NCBI RefSeq assembly: GCF_988242995.1
Contig: NZ_OZ547043.1
Direction: 5' to 3' (one strand)
Length of the DNA stretch: 64,000 nt
This document shows positions 14,766-38,523 of this stretch, in pieces. The notes under the pieces were generated by a model. The model saw nothing but the letters and a program-made list of their open reading frames with translations. It was not told where the DNA came from and searched no databases. Within the stretch, counting starts at the first letter, position 1, and every line of letters begins with the position of its first letter. The position numbers and the translations under genes are program-made.

Positions 14766-15302
14766 TTAATTTTGTTCGTTATCGGCGTCGCCAGCCTGGT
14801 AATATTCCAGCGCCCAGCGGATACGGATAAATTCTGTTGGCCGCTGCTGGCGGCGGTGATGATTGAGCAGGTCGTCGCTCTCCTGGCACCAGCGGAAAAT
14901 ATCGTCTGCCAAAGAGATAAGATTGACGGAACCATTTAATAATTTGACCGCGCGACGTAACTGACGCAGTAAATCATCAGGCGTTTTTACTGCCGACAGG
15001 CGAGTAAAACGCCCCTCCGACATTACCGCCGCCAGCTGCGCGGCAAAAGGCTGCCGTTCATCAATAGCTTTAACATTGGCGCTAACTGCGGCGACCAGCG
15101 CCAGTGCGGTAAAACGCCACTCTTGTGCTTCAATTTTCCACAAAGTGTGGGTCTGCATCAGCAGAGAACGAAACCCTTCTGACAGACAAACATCATTAAC
15201 CGTTGTGCTACGCCGCAGACTGGCACGATTGCCGCGTTTTTCCTGCAACTCTTCGTGCCATTTACGCAGCGTGGCTTTGTGCTCCTCTTTTACAATACTC
15301 AT
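14766..15302 (-). CDS. casB: Cse2/CasB Cascade small subunit
   Basis: ORF track 178 aa between casA and casC; exact start uncertain. Confidence 0.8.
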   Translation of the reverse strand: MSIVKEEHKATLRKWHEELQEKRGNRASLRRSTTVNDVCLSEGFRSLLMQTHTLWKIEAQEWRFTALALVAAVSANVKAIDERQPFAAQLAAVMSEGRFTRLSAVKTPDDLLRQLRRAVKLLNGSVNLISLADDIFRWCQESDDLLNHHRRQQRPTEFIRIRWALEYYQAGDADNEQN

Positions 15303-16867
15303 TCAGCAGCCTCCTGCTTTTTCTCCCTGGCGGCTTTAGCATTTTGCTTCTCCGCCGATGTTGTAAAATATTTCTTGCGCGCGGTCATGACGCGTTTCAA
15401 ATCAACGGGCTCATATGGATTGGTGAAGACACGCTCGTCAAAATCCTGACGCGCGAATAACCAAATTTCCTTTTGCCATTTGCTGAGTAATTCATCCGCA
15501 TCCTGACCTTCTTCAATGTGGCGCACTAACCTCAGGAAGCGATGCTGAGTTTTGTTCCAGAAGTCGATATCCACAAAACTGAAATCACCCCGTGCACCTT
15601 TTGGATCGGAGAACCACGCTTCTTTCAATGCACTCCGTAACAGACTCAGAATCCGTGAAGCCGTTTGCGCAGCCAGCCGCAGCTTCGGTATCTGGCCTTC
15701 TTTTTTATCGAGCAGCAGCGGAAAATGGTGTTCGTACCAACAGCGCGCTTTCATGTTGTCAAAATCATAACCAAATCCCCACAGGCCCACTTTTGCCTGC
15801 TTGAGACTGCTGGCATTAAAGAGTTTCACCACCAGCGCGGGAAGTTCCGTATTGTTTTCTGATTTACCCGTTTCGATAAGGCCTAACCAGTCGCGCCAGA
15901 TTAAACCGCCTGGTTGTGGTTTGACCGAGTAAAACTCGCCGCCCTCTTTAAGGGGTACACGGTAAGGCGTTAAGGGATGCTGCCACATGGCATAATTCGC
16001 GCCGTAATTTTTGGTCGTCATCAGGCTCAGGAGCGCGTCGTTCTGCTCGCCGCAAATATCGCAGTTGCCGACTGTCGTGGTATTAAAATCAATACGAATA
16101 CGCCGCGGCATTCCCCAGTACGCCTGGAGTTTATTAACCTGATCATCGGTTACCACCGCACCGGCCAGTTCGCTGGTACGCGTCGGGCCAAGCCAGGGGA
16201 AAACCAGATCGTCAAATTTTTTGGGTAGCGGTAAGTCGGCTTCGTCCTGCGGCATCACATTGAGCCACAGTTTGCGCCACAAGGGCGTTTGTTGATTGCC
16301 CTGATATTCCTGTAATTCAATCAGAGTGGTCATCGGCCCACCGCCGCGTAAACCGGTGCGGTAGCCTTTACCACCTGACGGCGCATTTAACTGTAGGGAG
16401 AACAGAGCTAACGCAGAACAATGTGGGCAAAGGTATTCCGTTACACCACGCTTGATAAAGTGGTCTTTATTAAACTTCGTTGTTTGAGCGCCGGGAATCT
16501 CAGGCAGTAGCGAAGCGACCTGAACTTTATCTCCTGTGAGCGCCTCGAAATCCTGCATAAATGAAGGGGAATCTGGCCCAAACTGGAAAGCGTGTTCTAA
16601 GGACAGCAATGCTTCCCGTAGCTTTTCAGATTCCAGTCCGTCTTCCCAGATATCATCCCAACGACGATGATCTTTTGGCGCAAAGCTGGTTTGTAGTAGC
16701 CCCAGCAAAAACTGCCATGCCGCTCCCTGGAGATCTGCCCGTGGCGCAGCAATATCGACAACATTTTCATCCGCCAGATCGACAGGCGCCAGTTTGCCTG
16801 TCGTTCCGTCTTTATAACGAACGGGCAACCACGGGGTTGTCAGAAGTGAAAACGAGTTCATACGCAT
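15299..16867 (-). CDS. casA: Cse1/CasA Cascade large subunit
   Basis: ORF track 522 aa; 4 nt overlap with casB. Confidence 0.9.
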   Translation of the reverse strand: MRMNSFSLLTTPWLPVRYKDGTTGKLAPVDLADENVVDIAAPRADLQGAAWQFLLGLLQTSFAPKDHRRWDDIWEDGLESEKLREALLSLEHAFQFGPDSPSFMQDFEALTGDKVQVASLLPEIPGAQTTKFNKDHFIKRGVTEYLCPHCSALALFSLQLNAPSGGKGYRTGLRGGGPMTTLIELQEYQGNQQTPLWRKLWLNVMPQDEADLPLPKKFDDLVFPWLGPTRTSELAGAVVTDDQVNKLQAYWGMPRRIRIDFNTTTVGNCDICGEQNDALLSLMTTKNYGANYAMWQHPLTPYRVPLKEGGEFYSVKPQPGGLIWRDWLGLIETGKSENNTELPALVVKLFNASSLKQAKVGLWGFGYDFDNMKARCWYEHHFPLLLDKKEGQIPKLRLAAQTASRILSLLRSALKEAWFSDPKGARGDFSFVDIDFWNKTQHRFLRLVRHIEEGQDADELLSKWQKEIWLFARQDFDERVFTNPYEPVDLKRVMTARKKYFTTSAEKQNAKAAREKKQEAAE

Positions 16868-16958
16868 CCTCTCGTAAAAAAGACCATCCTAGGTCGGTTG
16901 TCCATCATTCCATCCTTTTCGGTGTATCAACTATTCAGAGAGCCCTGTCGCAGGCATC

Positions 16959-19658
16959 TCAACCAACCTTGCCAGTCAATCCTTCCATAGCCGAATACCC
17001 GCAACTTTCGTCATCGGTAACTAAAATCACGTTTGCCATCTCCGGATCTTTCCGCTGTTCAATGCACCACTGCCTGAACGCTTCCCCTTCCAGTAAAGAA
17101 AACTCATCCCGATGTTTTTTCCACCAGCTTCGACGCACTCTGACAACGCTCATTTCCCATGCGTGAGCACCGTTGGCATAAGGCTTCACCACACTGGCAA
17201 TACAGGTAGCCAGCCACAGGGAAACAGACTCCTCCGCCAGACGTGTCGACAGCTTTTCCGGAAGGTAATCGTTGATATTGGCGGCATAGCCAGGCCTGAA
17301 GTTCAGCACAAACTTTTTAGCCATTGCGCGATCGCAGTAATATTTGCCCACTTGCTCCTGCTCGCTGCGGGCAAATCCTTCCGGCATTACCACGTCCTCA
17401 CCGTAGACTGATTCAATAAGAAGGCGGGCTGCGTGTGGCATTTGAATAGCGCCTTGCTCACGCAGTACACGCTGCGTCAGCCAGATTCGTCCATGATCGG
17501 GATAGACATATGCACTGTTACGCATGGCACTGCCGAACCATTCGTCACCTGGAGCGTCGTCCCAGACGGGGGCCAGAATCAGCAATTCAGGAGGGGAACG
17601 CTCGTCTTTTCCGTCACGCTTTAACTGACCATTAATATCGCGGATATGCCGCTGTAATCGCCCCGCTCGCTGGATCAGCAAATCAACAGGGGCCAGGTCG
17701 GAAATCATTTCGTCCATATCGCAATCAACGCTCGACTCTAAGACCTGAGTACAAATGAGGACTTTTCCGGCACGCTGTGAGCTATCTTCTTTACCGAAGC
17801 GTGCCAGCGTTTCCGTTTCAATTCGCTGGCGATCGCTAAAAGCAAAGCGGCTATGAAACAGAGAAAGGCTGGAAGCAGGAATGACGCCGCGGGCAAGCAA
17901 CTGACGATAAACCTTAATAGCGTCATCGACAGAATTCCGGATCCAGGCGATGCATTTCCCCTGACTTACTGCCGATTCGATACGCGCAATACATTCTTGT
18001 TCGCTATGAAGCCAACCCACGCTCACGCTACGCTCAACGTCTTTGCGCGTCGCTACCCGGTGTGAATGCACATCGGATTTCGTAACGTGCGTCAGCCAGG
18101 GGTAATCATCCTTTTCCAGGAACGGAGCTTCTTGCTGGCCCTCTGTACCACGCGCAAAGGCAGCAACGAGTTTGTCGCACTGCTGTTGAGATAACGTGGC
18201 AGAAAGCAAAATGACGCTGTTTCCGCCACGCGCCTGCCGCTCGATCAGCCCTTCAAGAATGCATGACATGTAAGCGTCACAGGCATGGATCTCATCAGCC
18301 AGCAGGATTTTGTTACTCAGTCCCAGAAGCCGCAGATTATTATGTTTGAACGGCATCACAGCCATCATCGCCTGATCCAGCGTGCCGACGCCAATTTCAG
18401 CCAGTAGCGCCTTCTTGTTACTGTCGGCAAACCAGGCCGCACATCCCTGACTGAACGTTTGTTCATCCGGTTCTTCTGACCCGACTAAATCACCGGACCA
18501 GAGTGATTCATTAAAGCGGTCCATTAATGTTCGGGCACTGTGTGCCAGCACCAGGCTGGGGCGGGACTCTGGCGAATAGAAAGCAAGCCAGGTTTTGACC
18601 AGTCGATCGTACATGGCATTGGCCGTTGCCATTGTTGGCAGGCCAAAAAACAAACCCTGCGCTTTACCCGCAGCCATCAACCTGTGCGCCAGGATAAGCG
18701 CCGCTTCCGTTTTACCTGCGCCAGTCACATCTTCCAGAATAAATAACTGTGGCCCTGGCTGGCTGATATCCAGATCCAGCACCTTTTGCTGTAACGGTGT
18801 CGGATTCTCAATAAAAGGAAACAGCGTATTAATTCCGGTGAAAGGCGCGACTTTTGCTTTTAGAGGAAAGACGGTTAAGGCGTTTTGAGCCTGAACTAAA
18901 GTTTTCTGCCAGTAACCTTTATTATCCATTGGGTGTGCGACGCGTGGAAAAAATCGCGTTGACGAACCCGTCCAGTCTGCGAGCACGACGGTTGCAGAGA
19001 TATACCAGGAAAGGTGTTTTATAAGTTCAATGCCCTCATCATCATCCCAGAATGCGGGGATCTCTATGAGCGGAAACAGTGGTTTGATTTCAAGAAGAAA
19101 ATCTCGCGCGGCAGCTTTGTCTTCAGGCAGAAAATTATCCAGTTCATCAATACGGTCAGGCGGGCGACCATGATGCCCGGTAGTTATGGGCATCCACATC
19201 GCTATTACACGTGTAAGTTTGCGGGGAGAGAGTGAAGAGGAAGGAAGTAACTCCTGACATTCACTTAAATAATGATGCCACAACCAGTAGCCCAGCGTTG
19301 AATGAGAGATTTTTTCGTAATTTTTTCTAGCACCTTCCGGAACCCTGAGTTTCGGGTGCAGGTAAAGTTGCTGAAATGAGCGGGCAAATTTACCAGTATC
19401 GTGCCAGCACAACAACCAGGCGAAAAATTGAGCCGCCTGTTCCTTGTCAGAAATCTCTAATTGACGAAAATAGTCAGCCAGTCCGAAGCAATTGCTTTTA
19501 ACCATTAAATAGCCCATCGCGGCTACATCCAGCGAATGCCAGCAAAGAAGGTGATAGTCGTCGCCCCCGTCTTTCTCGCCGCGTCGGGTTTTTCCCCAGA
19601 AATCAAAAAAAGTCACAATATTTTTATCCTTCAGTAAACTTAAAGGATATTTACGCAT
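16959..19658 (-). CDS. cas3: Cas3 HD-nuclease/helicase
   Basis: ORF track 899 aa with N-terminal HD region and DEAD/DEAH helicase motifs; only 91 bp upstream of casA. Confidence 0.93.
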   Translation of the reverse strand: MRKYPLSLLKDKNIVTFFDFWGKTRRGEKDGGDDYHLLCWHSLDVAAMGYLMVKSNCFGLADYFRQLEISDKEQAAQFFAWLLCWHDTGKFARSFQQLYLHPKLRVPEGARKNYEKISHSTLGYWLWHHYLSECQELLPSSSLSPRKLTRVIAMWMPITTGHHGRPPDRIDELDNFLPEDKAAARDFLLEIKPLFPLIEIPAFWDDDEGIELIKHLSWYISATVVLADWTGSSTRFFPRVAHPMDNKGYWQKTLVQAQNALTVFPLKAKVAPFTGINTLFPFIENPTPLQQKVLDLDISQPGPQLFILEDVTGAGKTEAALILAHRLMAAGKAQGLFFGLPTMATANAMYDRLVKTWLAFYSPESRPSLVLAHSARTLMDRFNESLWSGDLVGSEEPDEQTFSQGCAAWFADSNKKALLAEIGVGTLDQAMMAVMPFKHNNLRLLGLSNKILLADEIHACDAYMSCILEGLIERQARGGNSVILLSATLSQQQCDKLVAAFARGTEGQQEAPFLEKDDYPWLTHVTKSDVHSHRVATRKDVERSVSVGWLHSEQECIARIESAVSQGKCIAWIRNSVDDAIKVYRQLLARGVIPASSLSLFHSRFAFSDRQRIETETLARFGKEDSSQRAGKVLICTQVLESSVDCDMDEMISDLAPVDLLIQRAGRLQRHIRDINGQLKRDGKDERSPPELLILAPVWDDAPGDEWFGSAMRNSAYVYPDHGRIWLTQRVLREQGAIQMPHAARLLIESVYGEDVVMPEGFARSEQEQVGKYYCDRAMAKKFVLNFRPGYAANINDYLPEKLSTRLAEESVSLWLATCIASVVKPYANGAHAWEMSVVRVRRSWWKKHRDEFSLLEGEAFRQWCIEQRKDPEMANVILVTDDESCGYSAMEGLTGKVG

Positions 19659-19852
19659 ATATTAAAAATTATCTGTGATATATATCGTTCAATAAAATAT
19701 TTACATTATGAATAATCAAATAATTTTCATCAGTAATATATATGAATAATAAACATAGGCATAATATTCACATAAACAATATAAATTAAAAAAGGGTGCA
19801 GGAGACCAAACCATCACAATTCAATACGCGGGGTTTTACCCCCGCGTGGTGG

Positions 19853-20005
19853 CTACTTCTTCGATTCGTAAGCGAGAACTGCCTTAAACTCCATACCACG
19901 TTCTCTGATACTCAACTCACACAACGAGTCGCCTACCATCAGCGTGAATCCCAGTACTGTACAACACAGTACGATGATTGCCACAAGGGCATATTTTGTC
20001 AGCAT
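19853..20005 (-). CDS. Hok/Gef-family type I toxin (HokE-like), 50 aa
   Basis: Hand-translated minus-strand [53 protein letters not shown]: one TM helix then the Hok signature (SLCE...IR...AYES). GGGAGG Shine-Dalgarno 6 nt upstream. Not in the ORF track (below size cut-off); the 84 aa plus-strand ORF 19796..20050 is its antisense. Confidence 0.7.
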
Positions 20006-20270
20006 GTCTTGCCTCCCTGCAAAGAAGAGACTAACATTCGAATTGCTTAGGTTCGAACGCTGGCCTCAGGTTGATAGAAATATCGCCTGGGGCTTTTGTC
20101 CATCTGGAACCTCGCGAATGCTTAACGCCAGACAGCCTCAAGCACCCAACGCCATTCTATACTTGATAATTCTTCCAGCGGCGTTCACGTTTAAAATCAG
20201 GAATGCTGCTCGCAAAATAAAAACGCCCCCATCTTTTCAGACAGAGACGTTTATTAAGCGGTACGATATT

Positions 20271-21005: not shown

Positions 21006-21026
21006 AGATTCCTCACTGTTTGCCTT

Positions 21027-21063
21027 GCCTGATGCGACGCTCACGCGTCTTATCAGGCCTACA
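21027..21063. repeat. REP (repetitive extragenic palindromic) element between cysI and cysH
   Basis: GCCTGATGCGACGCTCACGCGTCTTATCAGGCCTACA, the classic REP palindrome. Confidence 0.85.
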
Positions 21064-36111: not shown

Positions 36112-36249
36112 TGGTTATCCCCGCTGGCGCGGGGAACATAAGTTCGACAACTTAAAAAATGATAACAAGTCCGGTTTATCCCCGCTGATGCAGGGAACAT
36201 AATAAAAACTTTAACTAGTTCGGTTTATCCCTGTTTTTACAAGGAATAT
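36112..36249 (-). CRISPR. Degenerate CRISPR remnant (3 decayed repeats)
   Basis: TGGTTATCCCCGCTGGCGCGGGGAACAT, CGGTTTATCCCCGCTGATGCAGGGAACAT and CGGTTTATCCCTGTTTTTACAAGGAATAT, separated by 32 bp and 20 bp. Confidence 0.75.
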
Positions 36250-36702
36250 TAACTACACTCGATGTATTTAGAATAAAAGACAATACGAATCGCACTTTAT
36301 CAATTTTCACTTAAAGTATGAACTGGATATCTTTATTCATAAGAACTATTCATCAACAGCGTATAGAGGCGATTATGTAAAACCACTCATTAGCCTCAAA
36401 ACAAAGACAAATTTCCAGATTTATTACTTAATCAATGAATAACAAGCTTAAAAAATACACTGTTATTCTAAAGAAAAAATTAACAGGCATTAATTAATAT
36501 TAAAAAAATAATATGTTAAAATTTCTTAACGGTTTAAGGATTATACAAATAACACTTTGATTAAATTTTATTTTTTGTATCGATAATTGTGAACTTGTCA
36601 TATATGGAGAGCTATTTTGAACATGAGGTGTTACGTGGATATGTTGCTTAATACGAGTACTGCTAATATAAAAACTTGAGAAAGAGATAACGGGTTATAT
36701 GG

Positions 36703-37219
36703 TGGTTTATTCCCGCTGGTGCGGGGAACTCATCAGTGATATCCAACATTGCGGAGCTAAACGCGGTTTATCCCCGCTGGCGCGGGGAACTCAATTAGCC
36801 CGCCTCGCGCGGGTTTTTTTGTGCCGGTTTATCCCCGCTGGCGCGGGGAACTCTTTACTTATCTGCAAATATTTTTTGTCAGCTGCGGTTTATCCCCGCT
36901 GGCGCGGGGAACTCACGAACGCGGCACACCAGGGCGTCTCATCGTCCGGTTTATCCCCGCTGGCGCGGGGAACTCGAACACGACAGGAGTGATAAATGTA
37001 CGCACATCGGTTTATCCCCGCTGGCGCGGGGAACTCGGCTGATAGTGCTTCTGATTATTCGGCGCAAGCGGTTTATCCCCGCTGGCGCGGGGAACTCTAG
37101 GACCCAATATAAAACCGACTGGTTATTTTCGGTTTATCCCCGCTGGCGCGGGGAACTCTTTCAGTCTGGAACACAACGGCGTTAAATAACCGGTTTATCC
37201 CCGCTGGCGCGGGGAACTC
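36703..37219 (-). CRISPR. Orphan CRISPR array, type I-E repeats, 9 repeats and 8 spacers
   Basis: Repeat CGGTTTATCCCCGCTGGCGCGGGGAACTC, period 61 bp, starts 36703 (degenerate distal repeat, 3 mismatches), 36764 ... 37191; 32 bp spacers; leader on the right; no adjacent cas genes. Confidence 0.97.
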
Positions 37220-37300
37220 ACTAAACATAACCTATTATTAATTATTGATTTTTTAAGTCAGTCACAATCTACCAACTTAACAGAAACACACAAACAACAC
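37220..37300 (-). promoter_or_regulatory. Leader of the second CRISPR array
   Basis: AT-rich; contains CACAATCTACCAACTTA at 37264-37279, matching the first array's leader motif at the same distance from the last repeat. Confidence 0.7.
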
Positions 37301-37558
37301 ATCCATTATGTTAAAGAGCACTTAATTCATTGATTGAAAAGCCAAATATTTAAAGTAATTCTATACCGACTAAAATCCACCAAACTCCGACGTAATAATT
37401 TTCACTCCAACGAAAAATTAACGCCACAGAATTTGTAGATAATGACAATGATTAGTCCGGAATGGGCAAAATGGATGAGTTTTCAGAGGCGACAAAAAAT
37501 ATAAATGAGTGGAAGTCTTTACAGGTTCCACCCATTTATAACGCTTATAAATGTTTAA

Positions 37559-38230: not shown

Positions 38231-38523
38231 AGCATTCTCTGTGAAGTGGATAATTGTTAATTATTGCAGATCCTGCCGCAACAATCATGTCTTATTAACA
38301 TTCTGTTACAGGCAGGTTTAAAGAAAAATGAGAAACAGATCGTTAATAATAAAAGGGAGTAACGTATTATGTCAGAAATAAATAAAGCAAATGGATTTAA
38401 TCATGTCAAAAACATTCACCAAAATTATACTTATTTTTTCTGTGTTCGTTTTTAATTATAACGAATCTCAAATTACCGATGTCGCCGTCAATTTATTTAT
38501 CCAGCTTTAATGGGACATTTATA

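Follow-up and report, generated by a model that had tools for sequence, protein, structure and literature searches.

The AT-rich region between the hok mRNA end and cas3 in the cas-E1 locus of Escherichia coli: a candidate CRP/FNR-dependent promoter

When and how Escherichia coli transcribes its CRISPR-Cas genes is a question for which, to our knowledge, nearly all that has been learned comes from K-12. The cas-E1 variant of the locus is at least as common as the K-12 variant; roughly half of complete E. coli genomes carry it, O157:H7 and O104:H4 among them. A literature search on the E1 cas3 promoter, on H-NS ChIP and on transcription start sites in E1 strains returned only work on K-12, Salmonella and Citrobacter, and the EHEC modulon supplements do not list cas genes. 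Here we ask what drives cas3 at one E1 locus. The window, by which we mean the whole stretch of 64,000 nucleotides that was analysed, is 100% identical to E. coli strain MEW, whose RefSeq records served as the source of annotation. A preliminary description had pointed to positions 19659-19852, upstream of cas3, as an AT-rich, curved and H-NS-prone promoter region that might also serve a neighboring toxin gene.

On the minus strand, the RefSeq gene order is cysH, a Hok/Gef gene, cas3, casA (15299-16861), casB-cas7-cas5-cas6e-cas1-cas2, the CRISPR array and iap. The Cas3 protein of the window is only 28% identical to that of K-12, which identifies the locus as the cas-E1 (O157-like) variant. 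The complete run from cas3 to the CRISPR array lies between cysH and iap with hok/sok present, as in the cas-E1 layout. The available text of Almendros et al. 2014 (PMC3903273) describes the same layout and reports that the E1 variant is accompanied by hok/sok and a specific intergenic segment. Between cysH and cysI, at 21018-21059, we also noted a REP-like palindrome with a sub-threshold Rfam match to naRNA4 (33.6 bits).

An exceptionally AT-rich block is present upstream of cas3, and the AT run quoted in the preliminary description was found at 19679-19728. The A+T content of about 80% given there for 19659-19852 is too high: the whole is 72% A+T because two different elements are joined in it, and 19659-19786 alone reaches 84%. 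The latter value ties for the maximum among the 128-bp windows of the 64 kb, where the mean is 49% and 0.019% of such windows are as AT-rich. The remainder, 19787-19852, is 48.5% A+T and corresponds to the hok 3'UTR. At the other end, AT-richness continues into the annotated 5' end of cas3, and 19600-19793 is 82.5% A+T. With GTG 19616 as the cas3 start codon (argued below), the non-coding AT-rich region becomes 19617-19786, a core of 170 bp with 82.4% A+T. The cas locus as a whole has two AT-rich islands, this block and the CRISPR leader, and its coding sequence has an A+T content of at most 59% throughout. Most relatives also carry a block of 70-88% AT upstream of cas3. Elsewhere in the window, AT-rich islands occur at 36186-36564 (84% AT), 37211-37322 and 38274-38428; the first, between the second CRISPR array and ygcE, presumably represents the leader region of that array. 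An Rfam search found no known RNA family inside the block, with the hok/sok match as the only one nearby.

The elements on the hok side of the interval are as follows.

19990-20147, minus strand: 5' part of the hok mRNA, target of the Sok antisense RNA, with the 5' tac element GGGUGC (Rfam RF01794)
19853-20005, minus strand: hok-like toxin gene, 50 aa (Pfam HOK_GEF PF01848, E=5.7e-10; RefSeq WP_000956458.1, Hok/Gef family protein)
19787-19852, minus strand: hok 3'UTR, delimited by fold, composition and retention in cas-less strains
19847-19826, minus strand: G+C hairpin of the hok 3'UTR, from folding
19807-19794, minus strand: fold-back (fbi) element, paired with the 5' end of the hok mRNA in the fold
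19793-19788, minus strand: U6 run directly after the fold-back element, the end of the hok transcript

The Rfam model ('sok') matches over its full length with 111.7 bits (E=1.5e-25; gathering threshold 59), and in the homologous DNA of K-12 sokX is annotated on the opposite strand. In the minimum free energy fold of 20147-19788, the 5' GGGUGC (20147-20142) pairs with GCACCC (19799-19794), and the fold as a whole has a z-score of -3.6, with none of 100 shuffled sequences equally stable. Such 5'-3' (tac-fbi) fold-back closure is typical of hok mRNAs. The Hok peptide, the Rfam sok 5' region and the tac-fbi pairing are all features held in common with hok/sok of plasmid R1 and with chromosomal hok loci; unlike the R1 copy, the one described here is chromosomal and stands beside cas3. 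The hok-like toxin gene named in the preliminary description is thus real, but hok precedes cas3 and shares its strand and direction, so the block abuts the 3' end of hok and not its promoter. The hok mRNA ends at the U-run 19793-19788, and cas3 therefore needs a promoter of its own in the following 170 bp; cysH, further upstream, has its own terminator. This context, together with the comparison with relatives described below, backs the proposal that the block is the promoter region of cas3. Two variants touch the hok end itself: E. albertii retains a remnant of the hok 3'UTR (hairpin and fold-back) upstream of cas3, with hok swapped for other sequence, and strain Ecol_545 carries an IS4-like IS421 at 19842/19843, within the G+C hairpin.

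Comparison with other strains assigns the AT-rich core to one side of this boundary. Homology to the cas-less strain CFT073 stops at 19788, with hok and its 3'UTR kept and iap-side sequence directly after. Across cas-less strains hok and the 3'UTR are 98.7% identical over the aligned segment and the AT core is absent, and against O157, 19787-19852 is 98.5% identical. The core is therefore part of the cas-E1 cassette, not of hok. Its proximal part was found in 2696 of 5426 complete E. coli genomes. From the available text of PMC3903273 we infer that 19617-19786 corresponds to the intergenic segment IG4: the cas3-cysH interval there shows the same order of hok/sok, a segment common with cas-less strains and an E1-only segment. 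In that available text, IG4 is treated in terms of arrangement and evolution, and no promoter, regulator site or start codon is assigned. Homology to K-12 stops exactly at the hok ATG (window 20003, about 11315 of the K-12 locus), so that K-12 keeps the hok 5' region and sokX and has lost the toxin gene; the K-12 cas3 promoter begins at this junction.

Within the core, two parts differ in how they evolve.

19721-19786, minus strand: distal, hypervariable part of the core, 74% identical between the window and O157
19617-19720, minus strand: proximal core, putative core promoter and 5' leader of cas3, from conservation and genome count

The 74% identity of the distal part compares with 90.6% at third codon positions of cas3; this part evolves faster than neutral, carries indels, and in Escherichia sp. 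MOD1 is largely deleted. Among E. coli E1 sequences, hardly any variation occurs between 19690 and the GTG. A test for purifying selection on the proximal core gave no significant result (4 differences in 74 bp against 9.4% expected from cas3 third codon positions, p=0.16). In strain EC6622, an IS1 replaces everything upstream of 19716 and the proximal core is intact. Short direct-repeat pairs in the core (19671-19685 / 19729-19743 and 19707-19719 / 19741-19753) suggest partial internal duplication. As a functional feature of the block these repeats (D1, D2) were rejected, the distal copies not being conserved in other E1 strains. We also observed that cas3 is annotated as a pseudogene, with an internal stop or frameshift, in the E1 strains ATCC 43896, APEC O78 and XJ5.2. 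Records of Pseudocitrobacter vendiensis and of a Collinsella MAG contain an E. coli-type cas3 (92-96% identity), in the former along with hok and the AT block, which suggests recent transfer or assembly contamination.

The start codon of cas3 sets the reference point for any promoter. RefSeq places it at ATG 19658 (16959-19658, 899 aa), yet alignments with orthologues of about 70% identity do not begin until residue 15 of this product. Six other genera have GTG, ATG or TTG at the position of GTG 19616, closely preceded by stop codons in the same frame. The frame from ATG 19658 is itself disrupted in Escherichia sp. MOD1, the Pseudocitrobacter record and E. coli XJ5.2, where one additional T lies between that ATG and the GTG. 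The Cas3_HD profile begins at residue 7. A Shine-Dalgarno sequence stands in front of the GTG, and none in front of the annotated ATG. Judged from these sequence comparisons, cas3 probably starts at GTG 19616 and the RefSeq start is 14 codons too long, a correction that matters for the design of reporter fusions and expression constructs.

16959-19616, minus strand: cas3 (E1 variant), 885 aa from GTG 19616, by orthologue alignment, indels and Shine-Dalgarno
19627-19631, minus strand: Shine-Dalgarno AAGGA, 10 nt upstream of GTG 19616, read from the sequence

A leader hairpin that would hide the Shine-Dalgarno (19649-19625) seemed to recur across genera and was considered as a control element; we discarded it, as its z-score is -1.8 and, over eight genera, the Shine-Dalgarno and start region pairs no more than it does in dinucleotide shuffles (Fisher p=0.14).

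Measured from GTG 19616, the proximal core contains an inverted repeat at a position familiar from related bacteria.

19675-19688, minus strand: CRP/FNR-type inverted repeat, ACGATATATATCAC in the window, centred 65.5 bp upstream of GTG 19616

In Citrobacter rodentium, as Campbell et al. 2025 (PMC12669028) showed, Fnr activates type I-E immunity from a site whose centre lies 69.5 bp upstream of cas3; the same study found that Fnr sites in Enterobacteriaceae cluster at -70.5 to -64.5 from cas3. The repeat described here, with its centre at -65.5, falls inside this cluster. That study does not list E. coli among the Enterobacteriaceae with an Fnr site, though EDL933 was analysed. The window allele ACGATATATATCAC matches TTGAT-N4-ATCAA at 7/10 positions, and the major E1 allele CTGATATATATCAC, found in O157, O104:H4 and APEC O78, matches both TTGAT-N4-ATCAA and TGTGA-N6-TCACA at 8/10. 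The two differ in the left half-site, which is ACGAT in 927 genomes of the window-like haplotype (>=99% identity) and CTGAT in O157, O104:H4, APEC O78 and others (about 1769 genomes, inferred from representatives). Matches of at least 7/10 are common in the AT-rich DNA of the block, with 5 observed against 3.1 in shuffles (p=0.19). Similar sites occur at the same position in other lineages: at -67.5 in I. alba, -64.5 in S. diarizonae, -66.5 in Phytobacter and -72.5 in Klebsiella; relative to a conserved Trp codon, the sites of all these lineages lie at -82.5 to -85.5. The I. alba coordinate equals the published one (PMC12669028), which confirms that the numbering convention is the same. With the published position range as the search range set in advance, and seven lineages outside the PMC12669028 list, a positional test gave a combined Fisher p of 0.009. 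Citrobacter youngae has a different, perfect palindrome, TGCAAATA-TT-TATTTGCA, at about -76 to -59 from the cas3 start; its centre, -67.5, is the position of the CRP/FNR-type sites in other genera.

A stricter scan found no strong sigma-70 promoter in the block, and a PWM search returned many weak candidates on both strands. One hexamer is placed as a class II promoter would have it.

19647-19652, minus strand: candidate class II -10 hexamer AAATAT, 22 bp downstream of the site, predicted start near 19640

AAATAT agrees with the consensus at 3/6 positions, and its placement puts the centre of the inverted repeat at -41.5 from the predicted start. In an alignment anchored on the site, E. coli E1 and I. 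alba both carry GTAAATAT with the same offset; the E. albertii sequence at this point is TAAAAT. We favour, with modest confidence, the reading that the interval consists of the 3' end of the hok mRNA (19787-19852) and an AT-rich cas3 promoter and leader (19617-19786) with a CRP/FNR-dependent class II start near 19640. In this model, an activator of the CRP/FNR family would bind the inverted repeat (19688-19675), whose centre at about -41.5 corresponds to class II geometry, and transcription would begin near 19640 from the weak -10 AAATAT (19652-19647). The predicted cas3 mRNA would have a leader of ~24 nt with the Shine-Dalgarno AAGGA ahead of GTG 19616. Probably, the default state would be off through coating of the surrounding TpA-rich, 82-84% A+T DNA by an H-NS-type silencer, and part of the transcription would run over the 91-97 bp gap into casA.

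Two characterized cas3 promoters resemble this arrangement. C. rodentium also has a type I-E system of the Enterobacteriaceae with a TTGAT-N4-ATCAA-type repeat 65-70 bp upstream of the cas3 start, and its cas3 belongs to the same family as that of the window, in which cas3 and cse1 stand close together. Its Fnr site has been validated and its other cas genes respond in parallel, whereas the E. coli E1 site is a sequence candidate. The E1 site is also weaker (7/10 in the window, 8/10 in the major allele), its right half is of the CRP type (TCACA), the EDL933 copy was not reported by the motif scan of PMC12669028, and an extra 91-97 bp separates cas3 from casA. In K-12 (cas-E2), binding and activation of the cas3 promoter by CRP were demonstrated by EMSA, footprinting and reporter assays (Yang et al. 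2020, PMC7019758). There, the CRP site is centred at -59.5 with GATAAT at -30 to -25, the same class II geometry. The sequences of the two variants are unrelated, however: the K-12 cas3 upstream region is about 95 bp long, 65% AT and stands in place of hok, and K-12 has a large AT-rich H-NS/LeuO region between cas3 and casA (414 bp, 70.5% AT).

One other reading of the proximal core is an H-NS-silenced sigma-70 promoter with GATAAT (19673-19668) as its -10, a start near 19661 and a leader of ~44 nt, in which the inverted repeat would be an AT-rich coincidence or a repressing operator overlapping the spacer.

19668-19673, minus strand: alternative -10 GATAAT, the best conserved sigma-70 PWM candidate, score 8.2

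The hexamer agrees with the consensus at 5/6 positions, is invariant in E. coli E1 and directly abuts the inverted repeat. The longer leader would hold the small hairpin that pairs with the Shine-Dalgarno (19649-19625, -8.2 kcal/mol), and the extra T of Escherichia sp. MOD1, the Pseudocitrobacter record and XJ5.2 sits in its loop. Its -35, however, is poor (TTTATT), its score is equalled by 85 sites on the same strand of the window, and E. albertii has GAATAT at this position. Such a promoter also leaves unexplained why the distance from the repeat to the start codon is constant across genera, and we consider it unlikely.

The block could also be a passive AT-rich spacer or junction scar, with cas3 transcribed mainly by read-through from hok or cysH. 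In favour of this are its position precisely on the cassette boundary, the hypervariability of its distal half, a rate of evolution for the whole block no slower than that of neutral sites, and the case of K. indica, which has only about 75 bp between cysH and cas3. Read-through would nonetheless have to pass the closed structure and U6 of the hok mRNA directly upstream, as well as the cysH terminator, and a mere spacer fits poorly with a proximal 70 bp that is nearly invariant across E1 genomes, with relatives that retain both the AT-rich block and a positioned CRP/FNR-type site, or with the IS1 of EC6622 at 19716, which spares the proximal part. We regard this account as very unlikely. The overlapping control of hok and cas3 that the preliminary description had suggested, for example by a divergent promoter in the AT core giving an RNA antisense to the hok 3' end, appears highly improbable. 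Plus-strand matches such as TTATCT-18-TAAAAT (predicted start near 19705, score 8.6) can be found, and the hok fold-back element is at most 20 bp from the core, but AT-rich DNA is expected to yield plus-strand matches of this quality by chance. The hok promoter and the Sok region are found ~200-350 bp further off, around 20010-20150; inside the interval there are only the hok fold-back and terminator, in the part that is not AT-rich and that cas-less strains keep. As hok and its 3'UTR are unchanged in those strains, hok does not need the core.

The class II promoter that we favour would operate in DNA whose composition bears on H-NS. The proposal that the region is curved found no support: in a wedge model, the core has a mean of 5.05 degrees per turn against a window mean of 6.41, and shuffled cores were more curved in 96% of trials. 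Its curvature maximum, 11.2, is at the 91st percentile, as estimated with approximate wedge parameters. The core has four A/T-tracts of at least 4 nt and shows neither the phasing of A-tracts nor the curvature looked for in an H-NS target; it is TpA-rich (31 of 169 steps), not A-tract-rich. Its A+T content is that of an H-NS target, reaching 84% in a 128-bp stretch and 82% in the full 170 bp where the window averages 49%. Six matches of at least 7/10 to the TCGATAAATT-like H-NS motif were found (best 8/10), compared with a window average of 1.6 per 170 bp, a number expected from the composition. TpA-rich DNA of 82-84% A+T is the kind coated by H-NS-type silencers, and the default state of cas3 is for this reason probably off. 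Composition, TpA richness, the exchangeable nature of the cassette and the analogy to S. Typhi cas3 make H-NS binding to the core plausible. According to the available part of PMC8039139, S. Typhi cas3 is silenced by H-NS (Medina-Aparicio 2011, 2017). The S. Typhi locus is E1-like and also has an AT-rich region upstream of cas3, yet the upstream sequences cannot be aligned with those of the window, and its cse1 promoter is reported in the same part to be LeuO-dependent.

The short gap between cas3 and casA bears on whether Cascade shares the cas3 promoter.

16862-16958, minus strand: cas3-casA intergenic gap, 51.5% AT, fold z=-0.6

The gap had been described as 91 bp long and not AT-rich, and we find the same: it is 91 bp by the longest ORF and 97 bp by RefSeq, with 51.5% A+T. 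The best PWM promoter score within it is only 7.5, and no terminator in it passes the scan. Two small hairpins are present, one of 8 bp that follows the stop codon and one of 4 bp with a U6 run behind it. In Citrobacter, Salmonella, K. grimontii and Phytobacter, cas3 and cse1 are 12-14 nt apart, with the ribosome-binding site inside cas3. Expression data from relatives are mixed. In C. rodentium, the genes from cas3 to cas2 are induced together by anoxia (log2FC from 2.84 to 1.90; PMC12669028 source data), and in mice cas3 rises far more than casA (4.9 vs 1.6; PMC12669028). The available part of PMC8039139 reports cas3 and cse1-cas2 of S. Typhi as separate units. By analogy, co-transcription of cas3 and casA in E1 is plausible.

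The cas-E1 control region is an unstudied member of an ordinary class, a cas3 promoter and leader beside the end of a toxin mRNA. It is possible, and we put this forward tentatively, that cas-E1 is switched on by anoxia (FNR) or by cAMP-CRP via the class II site at -65.5, with activation spreading to Cascade by read-through. If so, E1 strains would depart from the K-12 paradigm of H-NS and LeuO acting on a separate casA promoter, and the natural left half-site alleles, CTGAT and ACGAT, would set the inducibility of immunity. A working CRP/FNR-type site would extend gut-anoxia activation of type I-E immunity from Citrobacter to E. coli pathogens, and would give the question of when CRISPR-Cas is active in E. 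coli a concrete, testable answer.
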